A DNA stretch of 64,000 nt from a virus (lineage: Duplodnaviria; Caudoviricetes): IMG/VR virus record IMGVR_UViG_3300014205_000182, positions 79,725-143,724 of that record; one strand, written 5' to 3'. The notes below the pieces were generated by a model. The model made no database searches. It saw nothing but the letters and a program-made list of their open reading frames with translations, and was not told the origin of the DNA. A program made the position numbers and the translations under genes. Below, one piece after another: positions 17,817-54,162 of this stretch (positions are counted from its first letter, which is position 1; each line of letters opens with the position of its first letter).

Positions 17817-17845
17817 TTGACACCACCCACCAGGGTGGTTACTGT
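17817..17845 (+). promoter_or_regulatory. sigma70-type promoter for ncRNA locus 1
   Basis: TTGACA-N17-TACTGT; predicted start near 17851-17852 matches first RNA stem. Confidence 0.75.
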
Positions 17846-17851
17846 ATCTGA

Positions 17852-17927
17852 GTCACCAAGCATGGTACCTGAGGAGATCTCAGGGCACGACCAAGTTGTT
17901 CTTCGTTCGCATGAAACACTTGGTGAC
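17852..17927 (+). ncRNA. unknown structured RNA (RNA X)
   Basis: 9-bp closing stem GTCACCAAG/CTTGGTGAC enclosing CCTGAG/CTCAGG hairpin; non-coding, at predicted TSS. Confidence 0.55.
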
Positions 17928-17932
17928 GATTA

Positions 17933-18008
17933 GGTGAGGTACGCTAAGTTAAAGCGGCGGGCACTATAAAGCCCGTGTTTGGTGGTTCATGTCCATCCCT
18001 CACCACCA
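17933..18008 (+). tRNA. atypical tRNA/tRNA-like RNA, 8-nt anticodon loop, identity undetermined
   Basis: acceptor GGTGAGG/CCTCACC + A-CCA; D stem CGCT/AGCG; stem CGGGC/GCCCG with loop ACTATAAA; T arm GGTGG-TTCATGT-CCATC; no D-loop GG. Confidence 0.75.
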
Positions 18009-18092
18009 TCCGATAGTGATGCTAGCGGTTACTTCTTTGTCTAAGGACGGGTTCTTCGGGACCCGTAAATACCCGCTGCGATTTTCTTCGGA
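18009..18092 (+). ncRNA. Y-RNA-like scaffold copy 4
   Basis: TCCGA/TCGGA closing stem, TAGTGA, TAGCGG/CCGCTG, TTACTTCT, UUCG hairpin insert; same consensus as 27-kb copies. Confidence 0.7.
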
Positions 18093-24257: not shown

Positions 24258-25483
24258 AGAAAATCAAGCGATGGAGCGCACAGTACGTTCCCAGCATGCG
24301 CGAATGCTTTCAAGCTCGCGACGGCAAGGGCTATTCGTCCGAGGACTTCAAGGCCGGTGAAACGTTTACGCACGCCCAGAGTTGTATCTGGTTGCTCGGA
24401 TACTCTGACCTTGGTGTCGCTCTCCTGAACGACGTCGATCCTCACGGCGCCGTCGCTGCATCCGTTCTTGGTGTGAGCTACGAAGAATGGTTCAAGCGTC
24501 GTAAGGAACCTCTCTTTAAGGCGGCTCGTCAGGGCGCCAAGCCATTTACGTTTGGAAAGCCCACCGGCATGTCGTCGATCAAGCTTGTCTTGTCTAACCG
24601 CGCCCAGGGCCAGGATACGCCAGCCGAGGGAGGACCGTCGTGGATTGACGACGGAACGTATACCGGCAAGAAGATTCGCGGGTACAAGGGTACGAGATTC
24701 TGCATTCTGATGAACGGCTCACCTACCTGTGGTGACATCAAGGTAACCAGCTGGGGTCGTCGCGACAAGATCCCGCCGACTTGCAAGGCTTGTCTGGAAT
24801 GTGCCGATCACCTCGGCAAGATTTGGCTCAAGCAGTGGCGTGAGAACCAGCCGTACTACGACATCAACGACGGGATCGTCAACGAAGGTATGATGATCAC
24901 TGAGGAAGCTCTGGAGCGTTGGCCGTGGCTCAAGAAGGTCTATCGCCCTGGCACGAAGACCGAACCTGGCCAGGTGATGCAACACTGGTCCGGTCGTTTG
25001 CGTGGTGGTATGGACTTCACGACGACGTGCAACGGGTGGTTCCAAGTCCTTCTGGCCGAGATCACCAAGCTTGCATACCGCCTCGTCGCTCGTGAGTGCT
25101 ACGACTCGACAATCAAGGTGCCAACACAGTTGTTCTACAACTCCAACCGTAGTCGTTACGCTGGTATGCAGAGCCCACTGTTCCGGTCTACACCGGTTGC
25201 ACCATTTCACGACGAGTTGTTTATGGAGCACCCGGCGTCGATGCTGGTTGACGGTGCAATGCGCACCAGTGAAGTAATGCGTGATGTTTTTGCGTATGTT
25301 TGCCCGGACATGGCTGCGAAGGTTGGTGCCGACCCTACCATCATGGAGCGTTGGTACAAGAACGCCGAGCCGGTCTACCGCGACGCGGCGGGTAACAAGT
25401 GCGAGCCCGACGCGCCGGGCGCACGGCTTTCGCTGTGGAAGCCGAAATTCGGACCGGGCGCTGAGGTTGTTGGAGTCCAGTGA
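24254..25483 (+). CDS. polA: family A DNA polymerase, C-terminal fragment (palm/fingers)
   Basis: MRECFQAR..SEDFKAGE (motif A), DPH, RQGAKPFTFG (motif B), FHDEL (motif C). Confidence 0.8.
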   Translation: MKKIKRWSAQYVPSMRECFQARDGKGYSSEDFKAGETFTHAQSCIWLLGYSDLGVALLNDVDPHGAVAASVLGVSYEEWFKRRKEPLFKAARQGAKPFTFGKPTGMSSIKLVLSNRAQGQDTPAEGGPSWIDDGTYTGKKIRGYKGTRFCILMNGSPTCGDIKVTSWGRRDKIPPTCKACLECADHLGKIWLKQWRENQPYYDINDGIVNEGMMITEEALERWPWLKKVYRPGTKTEPGQVMQHWSGRLRGGMDFTTTCNGWFQVLLAEITKLAYRLVARECYDSTIKVPTQLFYNSNRSRYAGMQSPLFRSTPVAPFHDELFMEHPASMLVDGAMRTSEVMRDVFAYVCPDMAAKVGADPTIMERWYKNAEPVYRDAAGNKCEPDAPGARLSLWKPKFGPGAEVVGVQ

Positions 25484-25505
25484 GACCTTCGCTGGTTATC
25501 TGGGC

Positions 25506-26117
25506 ATGACGTACGAGAGACCAGATAGCCGTCCTCTGCCAGAGTTTCAGCCTTGGCCTAAGATCCCGAGACTTAACCGTGAGGTTACCGTTTCGGAGAA
25601 GATCGATGGAACAAACGCTGCGGTCTGGATTTCTGATGACGGTACTCAAATCGGTGCCCAGTCTCGGACGAAGTGGATCACTCCCAAGGATGATAACTAC
25701 GGTTTCGCTCGTTGGGTAGAGGAAAACCGCGACGAGCTTCTAAAGCTCGGACCTGGACATCACTTCGGTGAATGGTGGGGCTCTGGTATCAACCGCCGCT
25801 ACGGTCTAACCGAGCGTAGGTTCTGGTTGTTCAACACGCATCGTTGGGGTAATCCGGATACACGTCCTGCGTGTGTGGGCTGCGTTCCAGTTCTTTGGAA
25901 CGGTAACTACCAGGACATGGATCTTGCTGCAATCATGGCCAAGCTCACGAGTGAGGGTAGCGTGTCTGCGCCCGGGTTTATGAAGCCTGAGGGAGTTGTA
26001 ATCTTCCATCACGCCGCAGATCAGTACTTCAAGGTGCTTGCGGAGGGTGACGAGTTACCTAAGGGGATTACTACGTTGAAGGAACGCGCAACGCTTGCAA
26101 AGCTGGAGGGAAAATGA
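25506..26117 (+). CDS. ATP-dependent RNA ligase (Rnl2-like)
   Basis: SEKIDGTNA, QSR, FGEWWG, FWLFN, EGVV, K; start at MTYE. Confidence 0.85.
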   Translation: MTYERPDSRPLPEFQPWPKIPRLNREVTVSEKIDGTNAAVWISDDGTQIGAQSRTKWITPKDDNYGFARWVEENRDELLKLGPGHHFGEWWGSGINRRYGLTERRFWLFNTHRWGNPDTRPACVGCVPVLWNGNYQDMDLAAIMAKLTSEGSVSAPGFMKPEGVVIFHHAADQYFKVLAEGDELPKGITTLKERATLAKLEGK

Positions 26118-26778: not shown

Positions 26779-27017
26779 GTGATATGAACAATTCACAGAA
26801 GGCGGTACAGGCTCTGGTTATTCAGCTGCACGAAGCCGGTGAGCCGATTGAAGACATTACCGACGCGTTCTCGTTTGCTGGTGCCATTGCAGCGGCAAGC
26901 CTCAAGCTGCCGCGACGCAACGTCGAAGGCCTTGTCGGTATTCTTGCATCGGTGATGAACAACGAGATCCCTTCGCATTATCCGTCCCTTGACGATAAGC
27001 CCTTGACAGAGAACTAG
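26775..27017 (+). CDS. hypothetical protein
   Basis: coupled ORF. Confidence 0.5.
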   Translation: MSDMNNSQKAVQALVIQLHEAGEPIEDITDAFSFAGAIAAASLKLPRRNVEGLVGILASVMNNEIPSHYPSLDDKPLTEN

Positions 27018-27031
27018 TTCGTAGTTAGATT
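27003..27031 (+). promoter_or_regulatory. sigma70-type promoter for ncRNA array and Ro60
   Basis: TTGACA-N17-TAGATT; predicted TSS near 27037, first base of scaffold 1. Confidence 0.75.
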
Positions 27032-27036
27032 GTTTT

Positions 27037-27101
27037 TGAGACAGTGAAGCTGACGGATACTTCATCCATTAAAGAAACCCCGTCAACGTTATATCTTCTC
27101 A
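27037..27101 (+). ncRNA. Y-RNA-like scaffold copy 1
   Basis: TGAGA/TCTCA, CAGTGA, TGACGG/CCGTCA, ATACTTCAT, TATCT. Confidence 0.7.
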
Positions 27102-27105
27102 TTTT

Positions 27106-27179
27106 GCCCCTGTAGCTTAATTCTAGAGCACCGGTCATTAGGACCGGGGATCGTGGTGAAAATCCATGCAGGGGCGCCA
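27106..27179 (+). tRNA. atypical tRNA, nominal anticodon UUA
   Basis: acceptor GCCCCTG/CAGGGGC + G-CCA; D stem GCTT/GAGC; CCGGT-CATTAGG-ACCGG; T arm CGTGG-TGAAAAT-CCATG; A33, no D-loop GG. Confidence 0.75.
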
Positions 27180-27180
27180 A

Positions 27181-27241
27181 GCGGTAGTGATAGACTCGGA
27201 TACTTCATGGGGAAATAAACCCGAGTCAACAATATCTCCGC
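27181..27241 (+). ncRNA. Y-RNA-like scaffold copy 2
   Basis: GCGG/CCGC, TAGTGA, GACTCGG/CCGAGTC, ATACTTCAT, TATCT. Confidence 0.7.
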
Positions 27242-27251
27242 GTTAATTTAT

Positions 27252-27337
27252 GCACCTTATAGCTAGCAGCGGCGTGAATCACCAGCAGTACTGGTCGCGA
27301 AAGCGTAGTCACGACAAAATGAAGGTAGGGTGCGCCA
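27252..27337 (+). ncRNA. CCA-ended pseudo-tRNA with non-cloverleaf core
   Basis: acceptor-like stem GCACCTTA/TAGGGTGC + G-CCA; core CGTGA/TCACG enclosing ACCAG/CTGGT and CGC-GAAA-GCG hairpins. Confidence 0.6.
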
Positions 27338-27340
27338 ATT

Positions 27341-27470
27341 TGCCGATAGTGATGAGAGCGGTTACTTCATTGATAACGAACGAGGTCCGGGCTGCAAACC
27401 CCGGCGCACCTGCAAAGGTGTGTAGCTTAATAGTAGAGCGCGAAAACACCGCAATCGATTATCTTCGGCA
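27341..27470 (+). ncRNA. YrlA-like Y RNA (scaffold copy 3) with circularly permuted tRNA module
   Basis: TGCCGA/TCGGCA; TAGTGA; GCGGT/ACCGC; order is T arm CCGGG/CCCGG, 7-bp acceptor CGCACCT/AGGTGTG closed by GCAA, TA, D arm GCTT-AATAGTA-GAGC; next to Ro60. Confidence 0.8.
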
Positions 27471-27478
27471 CTTTTCAA

Positions 27479-27524
27479 GTGCGCCCCTGGACTGAGGGTC
27501 GGGGGACGGGGTCCAGGGGCGCAC
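27479..27524 (+). promoter_or_regulatory. 14-bp GC hairpin with G-rich loop before Ro60 (attenuator/terminator-like)
   Basis: GTGCGCCCCTGGAC/GTCCAGGGGCGCAC followed by ATCCTTTT. Confidence 0.55.
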
Positions 27525-27640
27525 ATCCTTTTATGTCCAGCAAGCATTACAACCCTGAAAAACGTGTATGGCGAGGCCGCTCCTACAAGAACGGCAAGCG
27601 TGTTTCTGAACTCAAGTACTCCAACAAAGGTAGTGACACA

Positions 27641-29281
27641 ATGGCAAACATTCTGAATCCAAAGTCTCCGAAGAAGATCGACCAAGTCGAAACCCACAAG
27701 AACTGGATGGGTGGAACTTCGTTCGACATCAACGATCCAATCATGCGGCTGCGCATCGCAGCTAGCTCGTGCTTCTTTGGCGAGCCACAGTACTACTCGA
27801 CGGACCCTGACGACAAGCGCAAGGCGCGTCAGGCATCTATGCCTGCTAACTTCGGGAAGCCGACGACACTGCCGGCAGCGCAGCTTACCAAGCTTCGTCA
27901 GACGCTGACGGCCATCGATCCTCAGGAGTGGCGGTCGATGACGCCGGCTCAGGCGATGGTCTCTGCTATCGACGCAGCCCTAGACCACGACCCTGAGGCA
28001 ACGCTCGGCATTGCAGCAGCGCTTCGCCAGGCTGATCACATCCGTACGACGCCCCAGGTTATCCTGGTTCGTGCAGCACACCACCCCAAGGTTCGTGGTA
28101 CTGGCATGCTCAAGAAGTATGCTCAGGAGATCATGGCACGTGCAGACGAGCCGGCCGTCGGTCTCGCATACCACATCTTTGCCTACGGCAAGGAGAAGCC
28201 AATCCCGAACGCCCTGAAGAAGGTGTGGGCACAGCGCCTCGCACGTGCTTCGGAGTACGACCTCGCCAAGTATCGCCTGGCTGACCACTCGGTCAAGACG
28301 GTCGACGTCGTCAACCTCGTTCACGCCAAGTCTCCAGCAATCGGAAAGCTCATGAAGGGTGAACTTACGACCGAGGGCGAGACGTGGGAGTCCATCATCT
28401 CGCAAGGCGGATCTACCAAGGAAAACTGGGAGAAGGCCATCGACAAGATGGGCCACATGGCCCTACTGCGAAACCTGCGTAACTTCAACGACAAGGGTGT
28501 TAACCCGTCGCTGTACACTGGCAAGCTCGTTGGTGGCGCAGCGACCGGTAAGCAGCTTCCGTTCCGCTATTACTCGGCGTACAAGGCTGTCGCCGGTTCT
28601 TCGGCACCGGTGATGGACGCTATCGAGCAGTGTCTGGAGATTTCGCTGGGTAACCTGCCGAAGTTCCCGGGCCGTACGATGGCGCTTGCCGACAACTCGG
28701 GCTCGGCTCGTGGTGCAACCACGTCCACGATGGGAACGATGCAGGTTTCGACGATTGCTAACTTGACGGCTATCGTGGCCGGCAAGGTGTCGGACGACGG
28801 CTACATCGGTGTCTTCGGTGACACGTTGAACGTCGTGCCGGTGCGCAAGAGGTCGTCGGTGTTCGATCAGTTGAAGGCTGCCGACGAAGCTGGTGCAGCA
28901 GTCGGCGGTTCTACCGAGAACGGTATCTGGCTGTTCTGGGAGAAGGCTATCCGCGAGAAGGAGCATTGGGACAACGTGTTCGTGATGTCTGATATGCAGG
29001 CAGGTCACGGCGGGCTCTATGGTACGCGTGCGTCGATGGCGTCGTACTCTCGTGAGTACGGTTGGCCGGCAGCTAACTCGCCGCACATCGACGTCGCCAA
29101 GCTCGTCAACACGTATCGCGCCAAGGTCAACCCGAAGGTCAACGTGTTTCTAATCCAGGTCGCCGGTTACCAGGACACCCTGATGCCGGAGTTCTACAAC
29201 CGTACGTATATCCTCGGCGGATGGGGTGAAGGCGTTCTTCGCTTTGCTGCCGCGATGGCTAATATCGGAGAGGTTAAGTGA
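27641..29281 (+). CDS. rsr: Ro60/TROVE domain RNA-binding protein
   Basis: N..GG.SF, FGEPQYY, RADEP, EYDLAKY, DVVNLVHAK, TWE, MALLRNLRN, QLPFRYYSAY, vWA DNSGS/SDMQ, GWGE; upstream in-frame ATG at 27533 also possible. Confidence 0.93.
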   Translation: MANILNPKSPKKIDQVETHKNWMGGTSFDINDPIMRLRIAASSCFFGEPQYYSTDPDDKRKARQASMPANFGKPTTLPAAQLTKLRQTLTAIDPQEWRSMTPAQAMVSAIDAALDHDPEATLGIAAALRQADHIRTTPQVILVRAAHHPKVRGTGMLKKYAQEIMARADEPAVGLAYHIFAYGKEKPIPNALKKVWAQRLARASEYDLAKYRLADHSVKTVDVVNLVHAKSPAIGKLMKGELTTEGETWESIISQGGSTKENWEKAIDKMGHMALLRNLRNFNDKGVNPSLYTGKLVGGAATGKQLPFRYYSAYKAVAGSSAPVMDAIEQCLEISLGNLPKFPGRTMALADNSGSARGATTSTMGTMQVSTIANLTAIVAGKVSDDGYIGVFGDTLNVVPVRKRSSVFDQLKAADEAGAAVGGSTENGIWLFWEKAIREKEHWDNVFVMSDMQAGHGGLYGTRASMASYSREYGWPAANSPHIDVAKLVNTYRAKVNPKVNVFLIQVAGYQDTLMPEFYNRTYILGGWGEGVLRFAAAMANIGEVK

Positions 29282-52963: not shown

Positions 52964-54162
52964 TACTTTTTCTTCCAGTTGTTGTGTAGCTGCTCAAGAG
53001 GGCCTGGACCCTTTGGCTTAGCGCTCGTGTCCTCGAAATTACCCTTGCTCTGGTATCCGGGCCTTTCCGTCAGGTTGGATTGTGGATGCGTGTCCTTACG
53101 ACTCAGGTTGCCCATATCGTCGCGCACGTTCTTTGACAGATATGGTGTGCCTGCCACACCAGCAGGGCCAGCGCCTTGGTTGCGTGTGTAACCTTGATCC
53201 ACAAGATAGTTTCCTAGGTGCTCGCGATCTTTCTTGTCTCGCAGATAGTCCTTCTCAAAATCGCGAAGTTCCTTTGCGTTGAGTCGCGCTCCTCGCTTGG
53301 TTTCAAAAATAGGGGCGTAGGTTGGGCCTGGACCGATCGCACCGGTGGCACGCGTAACGTCCTCTGGGTTTCGGCCGTTCTTAAGCCCTCGCTCGCTCTC
53401 CCAAAAGAACCAACCGCCAGCACCGCCGGTATGTCTGATCGACGCAGCGATCTCGCTACCCTTGTTGGACTGGATGTACTTAACCTGGACGGTGTTGTAG
53501 ATCAGCGAACTACCAGGTGGGTTAGCCTGACGCCACAACACGGTCTGCTCGTACTGACCGGATGACAATGTCGGCTGTGGTCCACGATTTCGCTTCTTCT
53601 TGCTGTTACGTGTCGCCGTACGAATACGCTGGTTCGTGACCTGCTTGATCTGCTTGAAGTCAGCTGTGAAAGTCAGGCCACCAGTCGTCTCCTTGGAGCG
53701 TGGGACGCTGAGAGATTCGAGCGCCATGTTGTTAAACGTGCCGAGTGATGTGCGAATTGTGACAGGGTTTCGCGACTCGTAGATAGACCTCAAGTAGAGA
53801 TAAGCCTGTTCAGAACGCAAGAACTTGATTGCAACCGGTGCAGCAAGCGACGGTGCGGCTAGATTACCGATCAGCTGCATGGTGCTGGTAGGAGACAGTG
53901 ACCCGCCAGAGATGGCGTCAACAGTCGCATTCTCCTTGTACGGATCTTCGAGTTGCTGTAGCTGGTTGATTGCGTTGCTAGTCAACGGCGTGTCGGTGAT
54001 AATCCCTGTGATTGAAACCGTGATTGGCTTTGGTCGGATATTGTCGCTGATGGCACCACCAGACTCAACCGGGAACTCGGTTACTTCGGATTCAAACTTG
54101 TGATCCTCGTTTAGAGAAACGTCAAGAATGTACTGTCCAATGCGTACAAATGTGCTGCTCAT
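52963..54162 (-). CDS. Dit-like tail tube initiator/baseplate protein
   Basis: E.H..ESEVTEFPVESG..ISD.I..KP, NM....L. Confidence 0.75.
   Translation of the reverse strand: MSSTFVRIGQYILDVSLNEDHKFESEVTEFPVESGGAISDNIRPKPITVSITGIITDTPLTSNAINQLQQLEDPYKENATVDAISGGSLSPTSTMQLIGNLAAPSLAAPVAIKFLRSEQAYLYLRSIYESRNPVTIRTSLGTFNNMALESLSVPRSKETTGGLTFTADFKQIKQVTNQRIRTATRNSKKKRNRGPQPTLSSGQYEQTVLWRQANPPGSSLIYNTVQVKYIQSNKGSEIAASIRHTGGAGGWFFWESERGLKNGRNPEDVTRATGAIGPGPTYAPIFETKRGARLNAKELRDFEKDYLRDKKDREHLGNYLVDQGYTRNQGAGPAGVAGTPYLSKNVRDDMGNLSRKDTHPQSNLTERPGYQSKGNFEDTSAKPKGPGPLEQLHNNWKKK

Follow-up and report, generated by a model that had tools for sequence, protein, structure and literature searches.

CCA-ended tRNA look-alikes adjoin Y RNA modules in a phage genome and may serve as processing signals

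Upstream of a gene for a Ro60/TROVE homologue (rsr) in a phage genome, small structured RNAs that resemble Y RNAs alternate with tRNA-like units, each closing with an encoded CCA. The locus raises the question of what these tRNA-like units do there. An earlier note, made by reading the sequence, had suggested that they recruit host RNase P and 3′ tRNA nucleases to cut a polycistronic transcript into unit Y RNAs, in the manner of mitochondrial tRNA punctuation. We followed up this proposal in the source, a 143.7-kb IMG/VR virus record with an estimated completeness of 90%; the window analyzed is its final 64 kb, and positions are those of the window unless marked as genome. The explanation we favor, to which we give somewhat more credence than doubt, is that the three units (T1, T2 and T3) derive from tRNAs, no longer decode, and stand in tRNA-operon-like arrays of Y RNAs that host RNase P and a CCA-acting endonuclease would cut.

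Two small-RNA arrays and their CCA junctions

The rsr-proximal array (Table 1) is ordered promoter, B, 4 nt, T2, 1 nt, C, 10 nt, T3, 3 nt, D, hairpin. When its whole 497-nt precursor was folded, B, T2, C, T3 and D formed independent domains (z = -3.9). The second locus consists of a weak promoter, X, T1 and, with 0 nt between, A, and it folds into separate modules likewise. Flanking signals were sought by scanning as well as by eye. The consensus scan that recovered the rsr-proximal promoter did not list the candidate promoter of the first operon, whose second hexamer is weak, and a terminator scan did not list the array-end hairpin (27479-27524 for the hairpin itself), whose T run is short. 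RNA X, which leads the X-T1-A operon, has a 9-bp closing stem around a three-way junction and no Rfam match; long-stem RNAs also stand behind CCA ends of the phage's tRNA array (at genome 9013-8945 and 12630-12567, minus strand).

The spacing within both arrays is asymmetric: a tRNA-like unit is followed by a gap of 0-4 nt and preceded by 4-10 nt of A/U-rich single strand. Because the latter has the look of an RNase P leader, the asymmetry is as tRNA processing predicts. Module B has no tRNA-like unit ahead of it, presumably because its 5′ end would come from transcription initiation. As modeled, the layout of units 0-10 nt apart fits that of a polycistronic stable-RNA operon.

Table 1. Features of the small-RNA arrays, the rsr locus and the phage's tRNA array (window positions unless marked genome)
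Feature	Position	Strand	Description and basis
Possible promoter, first small-RNA operon	17817..17845	+	TTGACA, 17 nt, TACTGT; sequence reading
RNA X	17852..17928	+	Long-stem structured RNA, about 4-5 nt upstream of T1; folds
T1	17933..18008	+	Cloverleaf fold, 7-bp acceptor stem, 8-nt anticodon loop, encoded ACCA; Rfam tRNA 42.9 bits
Y module A	18009..18092	+	Closing stem, AGTGA motif, inner stem, hairpin cargo; covarying family
RNA ligase gene	25281-26117		1 kb upstream of array; Pfam, PHROG searches
Sigma-70-type promoter, rsr-proximal array	27003..27031	+	TTGACA, 17 nt, TAGATT; consensus scan, 10/12 positions
Y module B	27037..27101	+	First unit after promoter, no tRNA-like unit before; fold, covarying family
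T2	27106..27179	+	Cloverleaf-type fold, triplet UUA, A33, encoded GCCA; Rfam tRNA 47.5 bits
Y module C	27181..27241	+	Fold, covarying family
T3	27252..27337	+	7-bp acceptor-type stem (one G-U) plus GCCA, enclosing a branched domain; fold
Y module D	27341..27470	+	Internal permuted tRNA-like domain (YrlA architecture); fold z = -3.5
GC-rich hairpin and short T-rich run	27479..27532	+	Likely terminator/attenuator; whole-precursor fold
rsr (Ro60/TROVE homologue)	27641..29281	+	Pfam TROVE 5.3e-13; PHROG 850 'RNA-binding protein'
Minihelix plus GCCA	genome 13727-13694	minus	34 nt, ~12 bp, 1 nt before tRNA-Gly(UCC)
Y module E	genome 13007-12935	minus	Fifth copy, inside the phage's 30-gene tRNA array
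Further CCA-ended non-canonical look-alikes	genome 12700-12631, 12165-12090, 8938-8868	minus	In tRNA array

The junctions reported in the earlier note proved exact. CCA triplets occupy 18006-18008, 27177-27179 and 27335-27337, and the closing stems of Y modules begin at 18009, 27181 and 27341, leaving gaps of 0, 1 and 3 nt. With a loose test for an acceptor stem followed by N and CCA, the plus strand of the window yields 28 candidates, and the probability that at least three of them end 0-3 nt from the four module starts is P = 5e-8. The abutment of CCA ends and Y modules is thus real and non-random.

A family of Y modules associated with Ro60

Modules A-E share one plan. A closing stem is followed by Y-AGTGA, an inner stem ending in CGG, and WTACTTC; next is the variable cargo, then CCG, a T-rich strand with TCT at its end, and the other side of the closing stem. 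AGTGA and CGGWTACTTC are the invariant motifs of this family. In module D the cargo is a tRNA-like domain made up of a T arm, a capped acceptor-like stem and a D arm, while A, B, C and E have a short hairpin or loop in its place. RNAalifold, applied to 13 short copies from 9 contigs, recovered both stems, with compensatory changes in 9 of the 12 consensus pairs; the 3′ halves had aligned poorly in MAFFT, and the counts are therefore those of RNAalifold.

Bacterial and phage Y RNAs of the YrlA/YrlB type, which occur with Rsr, have been described (Chen et al. 2014, PMC4201824; Rfam RF02553), and Yrl1/2 of Thermus phage phiLo are phage Y RNAs of this type (PMC12135203). Like YrlA and YrlB, the modules here are small structured RNAs, several to a locus, that closely precede a TROVE/Ro60 gene and share its strand, and module D shares with YrlA a permuted tRNA-like domain. 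They differ from YrlA in sequence. The partial match of module D to RF02553 scores 14.9 bits against a cut-off of 69, and at the gathering threshold RF02553 matched neither the window nor nine related loci; none of the family's members attains that score. The YrlA motif GNCGAAN0-1G near the 5′ end has a near match in D, with one mismatch, and is absent from A, B, C and E, so that four of the five modules lack both the CGAA motif and an internal tRNA domain. Position divides the modules as well. If a Y RNA is expected to share the strand of a Ro60/TROVE gene and to be no more than about 4 kb from it, B, C and D fit, at 171-604 nt upstream of rsr on the plus strand; unlike YrlA and YrlB, A and E are far from rsr, with A 9.5 kb upstream and E ~94 kb away on the other strand, within the tRNA array. 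A further difference from YrlA/YrlB is that free-standing CCA-ended look-alikes alternate with the modules. The motifs, folds and covariation of the modules, together with their recurrence upstream of Ro60 genes (below), lead us to take them for Y RNAs of a sub-family not captured by Rfam.

The family extends beyond this phage. A pattern scan of viral contigs found true Y-module copies in many contigs of 110-310 kb. Most matches in the viral and genome collections were set aside as chance matches in coding DNA, among genomes only 1 of 120 matches had a Ro60 gene nearby, and a match to the module core at window position 54078 was dropped, as it sits in coding sequence. In the closest viral relative (L008, Rsr 59% identity) and in metagenome contigs L149-L151, members precede Ro60 genes. 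The same family is also found upstream of a chromosomal rsr, 58% identical, in the myxobacterium Paraliomyxa miuraensis (NZ_JAOVZF010000144.1; L249), and of these metagenome contigs L150 (547 kb) likewise has a chromosomal rsr of 58% identity.

Several variants of the family came to light during these comparisons. Before the TROVE gene gp540 of Bacillus phage G, a 1-kb unannotated gap (L147, NC_023719.1 ~406650-407300) holds five unannotated Y-like units with a variant motif (TGAWGCGG ... ACAGTTACTTC) and AT-rich spacers between them. In a complete 225-kb phage (G001; L088 record, also L128 and L146), ~60.8-59.7 kb on the minus strand, there are three circularly permuted tRNA/Y chimeras in tRNA order: acceptor and D arm, 3′ strand of the Y stem, a GCAA-capped closing stem, the AGTGA and GGTTACTTC motifs, T arm, acceptor, and CCA. 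A similar tRNA/Y chimera precedes the Y module upstream of rsr in P. miuraensis.

The TROVE-domain ORF was called at 27533-29281. We place the true start of rsr, probably, at ATG 27641 (M-A-N) rather than at 27533 or GTG 27479, because alignments with relatives begin only at residue ~32-37 of the longer frame and because the L149 homologue (57% identical) likewise opens with M-A-N. AAAGG precedes this ATG, and a start there leaves ~110 nt between the array-end hairpin and the start codon. Among phages, the rsr product is best matched by the Ro60-like proteins of Bacillus phage G (38% identity) and a Desulfovibrio phage; at the DNA level, near and distant searches of the phage collection alike returned no relative. 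Since a 58%-identical chromosomal rsr carries the same Y family upstream, a myxobacterial lineage would be either that of the host or the source of the modules, and the host is probably a myxobacterium.

tRNA look-alikes inside and outside the Y arrays

The earlier note had described the three CCA-ended elements as defective decoders with good acceptor stems, and we agree on both counts. T1 has an 8-nt anticodon loop, T2 has A33 and T3 forms no cloverleaf; all three have a perfect or near-perfect 7-bp acceptor stem followed by NCCA. None of them has the full canonical set of a 7-nt anticodon loop, U33 and a T-psi-C/G18G19 elbow. In T2 the T loop lacks T-psi-C, the D loop lacks GG (G18G19), and the anticodon loop may have 5 nt. 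T1 and T2 exceed the 29-bit cut-off of the Rfam tRNA family (RF00005), a result obtained only with a short stretch as the query; a search of the whole window with Rfam at gathering gave no match, missing even these two. T3 has no Rfam tRNA match at E<=10 and no anticodon arm. ARAGORN found only one of the three window elements, T2, which it called 'tRNA-Stop (tta)'.

Relatives of T1 and T2 elsewhere in the genome indicate what has been conserved. A paralogue at genome 8421-8348 (minus strand) is ~80% identical to T1. Compensatory changes between the two preserve pairing in the acceptor, anticodon and T stems, and the anticodon loop varies in length and sequence. Compensated stems with a changing anticodon loop point to selection on the fold and not on the anticodon. 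A T2-like element at genome 12927-12857, with A33 and a GCGCCA end, shares the design of T2 and shows several compensated acceptor-pair differences. These differences argue against decay and also against decoding.

These relatives lie in the phage's own tRNA array. Of 30 tRNAs called in the genome, 20 lack an encoded CCA, whereas nearly all look-alikes carry one, and spacers between tRNAs are 1-6 nt. At least five CCA-ended look-alikes and one minihelix outside the window precede ordinary tRNAs or other hairpins, with no Y module. The T1 paralogue is followed 1 nt later by tRNA-Glu, and the A33 look-alike comes after module E and before tRNA-Arg. The order around module E (genome 13079-12857, minus strand) is tRNA-Val, a CUC look-alike without CCA, 4 nt, E, 8 nt, the A33 look-alike (GCCA), tRNA-Arg. 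The generalization that every CCA-ended element is immediately followed by a scaffold therefore holds within the window and breaks down in the rest of the genome.

Other features of these tRNA genes deserve mention. The 34-nt GCCA hairpin has the size of a tRNA acceptor/T-arm minihelix. Tight tRNA pairs, the first with CCA and the second starting 1-2 nt on without it, are common at genome 4.4-17.4 kb, for example Thr(CGU)/Thr(UGU), Leu(GAG)/Leu(CAA) and Ser(UGA)/Ser(GCU). Many tRNA T loops of the 225-kb phage (G001; L128, L146) read T-G-C-R-A where T-T-C-R-A is usual, which places G at position 55; this G also occurs in a few units here (genome 9088-9015 and 8938-8868), and T2 has T-G-A.

Ordinary tRNAs need no extra signal, so the CCA look-alikes that precede them are unlikely to be mere punctuation. 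Because the same kinds of look-alike occur in the tRNA array, where punctuation is unneeded, those in the Y arrays are likely to be stable RNAs that, beyond any punctuation, serve a purpose of their own. One may go further and suppose that the look-alikes are functional in themselves, as tRNA mimics or decoys or as cofactors of Rsr, Y RNAs or RNA repair, and that head-to-tail packing has placed them next to Y modules. This would suit the T1 paralogue, the A33 element and the minihelix standing directly before normal tRNAs in the main array, the stems kept by compensatory change, the recurrence of A33 look-alikes in another phage (G002), the RNA ligase gene 1 kb upstream, and the tRNA mimicry for which Y RNAs are already known (PMC4201824). 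The role proposed is a candidate one, and canonical tRNAs stand before Y modules in other phages, so a special look-alike is not required there. We regard this account as possible, though well short of probable; it overlaps with the explanation we favor rather than excluding it.

A broader version, which we offer tentatively and consider rather unlikely, is that the phage makes a class of CCA-ended, non-decoding RNAs together with Y RNAs, Ro60 and RNA ligase as decoys or cofactors, with punctuation secondary. The class would include the cloverleaves with aberrant anticodon loops, the 12-bp minihelix and the branched acceptor-stem RNA. As decoys they might, for example, sequester host defence enzymes whose targets are tRNA acceptor ends or anticodon loops; as cofactors they might present substrates to the Ro60-Y RNA particle.

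Junctions in other phages and a model of processing

In five other phage or metagenome contigs, Y modules adjoin tRNAs, ordinary ones included, at distances of 2-8 nt, in two cases without an encoded CCA. The clearest arrangement is in the complete 225-kb phage (G001), where Y modules lie within a tRNA array in the order tRNA-Gly(GCC)-CCA, 3-4 nt, Y, 3-4 nt, tRNA-Gly(UCC), and where two more CCA-ended look-alikes each end 2 nt before a Y module. Elsewhere, an A33 look-alike with CCA stands 8 nt before a Y module (G002), a tRNA-Pro without CCA 6 nt before one (G003), a tRNA-Met without CCA 4 nt before the first of five (L149), and a tRNA-Glu 16 nt before one (L120); in L029 and L034, Y arrays with their own promoters lie directly 3′ of tRNA arrays. 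That ordinary tRNAs fill the position of T1-T3 in other genomes suggests that tRNA shape is what matters there, and the CCA-less units before module E and before the modules of G003 and L149 indicate that CCA is not part of the junction rule. An apparent acceptor stem with CCA before the third module of L102 turned out to be the tail of another Y module.

Junctions between Y modules without any tRNA, consisting of 6-21 U-rich nt, are also common (L008, L024, G001, L102, L115, L137). Neither L008, the closest Rsr relative (59%), nor Bacillus phage G has tRNA-like spacers, and so Y RNAs evidently can be made without punctuation. A tRNA or look-alike lies <=8 nt upstream of a Y module in four of five cases here versus ~6 of 35 elsewhere; strict alternation of T units and Y modules is a peculiarity of this phage. 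By comparison across these contigs, punctuation by look-alikes appears plausible but not obligatory for this RNA family. The idea that the elements are processing signals is accordingly strengthened by the operon layout, the independent folds and the tRNA-Y abutment in other phages, and weakened in that neither CCA nor a tRNA is required at such junctions.

Three other accounts of the adjacency compete with processing. The first supposes that each T-Y pair stays joined as a two-part Y RNA, in effect a linear YrlA with a tRNA-like domain beside the Ro60-binding stem. Modules A, C and E, which have no internal tRNA-like domain, each have a tRNA-like unit 0-4 nt upstream, and the two modules occur joined in more than one way: nested in D, and in G001 and Paraliomyxa as chimeras in tRNA order whose Y stem is capped. 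We nonetheless think it quite unlikely: D already contains a tRNA-like domain yet also has T3 upstream, an internal encoded CCA would have no obvious use, and in G001 the same position is filled by ordinary tRNAs, which need release.

The second holds that the units function as tRNAs, T2 in ochre suppression and T1 in four-base frameshift suppression, as might be expected from high tRNA scores, intact acceptor stems, encoded CCA and the ARAGORN tRNA-Stop call for T2; a tRNA of Bacillus phage G, beside a tmRNA, is annotated with the anticodon tta. It is highly improbable given the differing anticodon loops of T1 and its paralogue, the missing anticodon arm of T3, and the A33, possible 5-nt loop and absent T-psi-C and G18G19 of T2. 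Moreover, the standard code reads the genome well and TAA ends 44 of 155 long frames, which makes an efficient ochre suppressor unlikely; the loop defects and the frequent TAA stops lead us to reject this role for T2. The third, that the units are decaying, functionless pseudo-tRNAs whose abutment is an accident of packing in a genome where all stable-RNA genes are closely spaced (1-6 nt between tRNAs), is just as improbable in view of the compensated paralogue stems, the 7-bp acceptor stems with NCCA in all three, and the presence of such a neighbor at four of five Y modules here versus ~6 of 35 elsewhere.

Processing at tRNA-derived units is our preferred explanation, and it builds on features seen directly, namely the layout, the folds, the covarying Y family and the recurrent abutment of tRNAs and Y modules in other phages. 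Two promoter-driven operons, in which T units alternate with Y modules, would each be co-transcribed. Host RNase P would cut at the 5′ end of each tRNA-like unit, which would release the preceding RNA (X, B or C) carrying a U-rich tail of 5-10 nt, and an endonuclease of the RNase E or RNase Z/BN type would cut at or just after CCA to generate the 5′ ends of A, C and D. Once free, the Y RNAs would be bound by the phage's Ro60 homologue, whose gene lies just downstream.

Searches of the phage record found no CCA-adding enzyme and no RNase Z-like protein encoded there, and therefore host enzymes would have to act. Of 41 tRNA genes sampled from a myxobacterial genome, 15 encode CCA, and such a host should accordingly possess both 3′-end pathways. 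Two considerations count against a cut at CCA. Encoded CCA inhibits RNase Z in some bacteria, as it does B. subtilis RNase Z. Against RNase E, a gap of 0-1 nt leaves almost no single strand for cutting. There is precedent for both kinds of cut: RNase E of E. coli, by cutting 0-3 nt past an encoded CCA, removes a downstream hairpin (PMC5291269), and in M. smegmatis YrlA and YrlB derive from one precursor, with YrlA cut by RNase P and receiving CCA (PMC4201824).

The proposed arrangement has parallels in quite different systems. MALAT1-mascRNA and the tRNA-miRNA units of MHV68 are further tRNA-shaped processing units, and the stable RNAs of the T4 tRNA cluster are co-transcribed. The arrays here resemble E. 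coli and phage tRNA operons in their head-to-tail stable-RNA genes, spacers of a few nucleotides, mixture of CCA and CCA-less units, and predicted cut 0-3 nt after CCA before a structured element (PMC5291269); they differ from bacterial and phage tRNA operons in carrying Y RNAs as non-tRNA passengers and in the inability of many of their 'tRNAs' to decode. As in mitochondrial tRNA punctuation and 't-elements' (PMC3790967, PMC1920247), tRNA-shaped units, some of them non-decoding, would mark the ends of neighboring RNAs within a polycistronic transcript, and RNase P and a 3′ tRNA endonuclease would cut there. In the mitochondrial and other eukaryotic systems cleavage has been demonstrated, whereas the cuts proposed here, at units with encoded CCA in a bacterial phage, are predicted from sequence. 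The components are already known, both Y RNAs with tRNA mimicry and tRNA-guided processing. Y RNAs in tRNA-type arrays that alternate with free-standing CCA-ended mimics are not described in the literature we searched.

Y RNAs and Ro60 are conserved from bacteria to humans, and the making of bacterial and phage Y RNAs has been little studied. If the look-alikes are cutting marks, they would be a bacterial-world counterpart of mitochondrial tRNA punctuation, and they would explain why phage Y-RNA genes recur within tRNA arrays; the processing model also predicts exact RNA ends. Beyond Y RNAs, non-decoding CCA-ended tRNA mimics are missed by gene finders and may act in the conflict between phage and host over tRNA.
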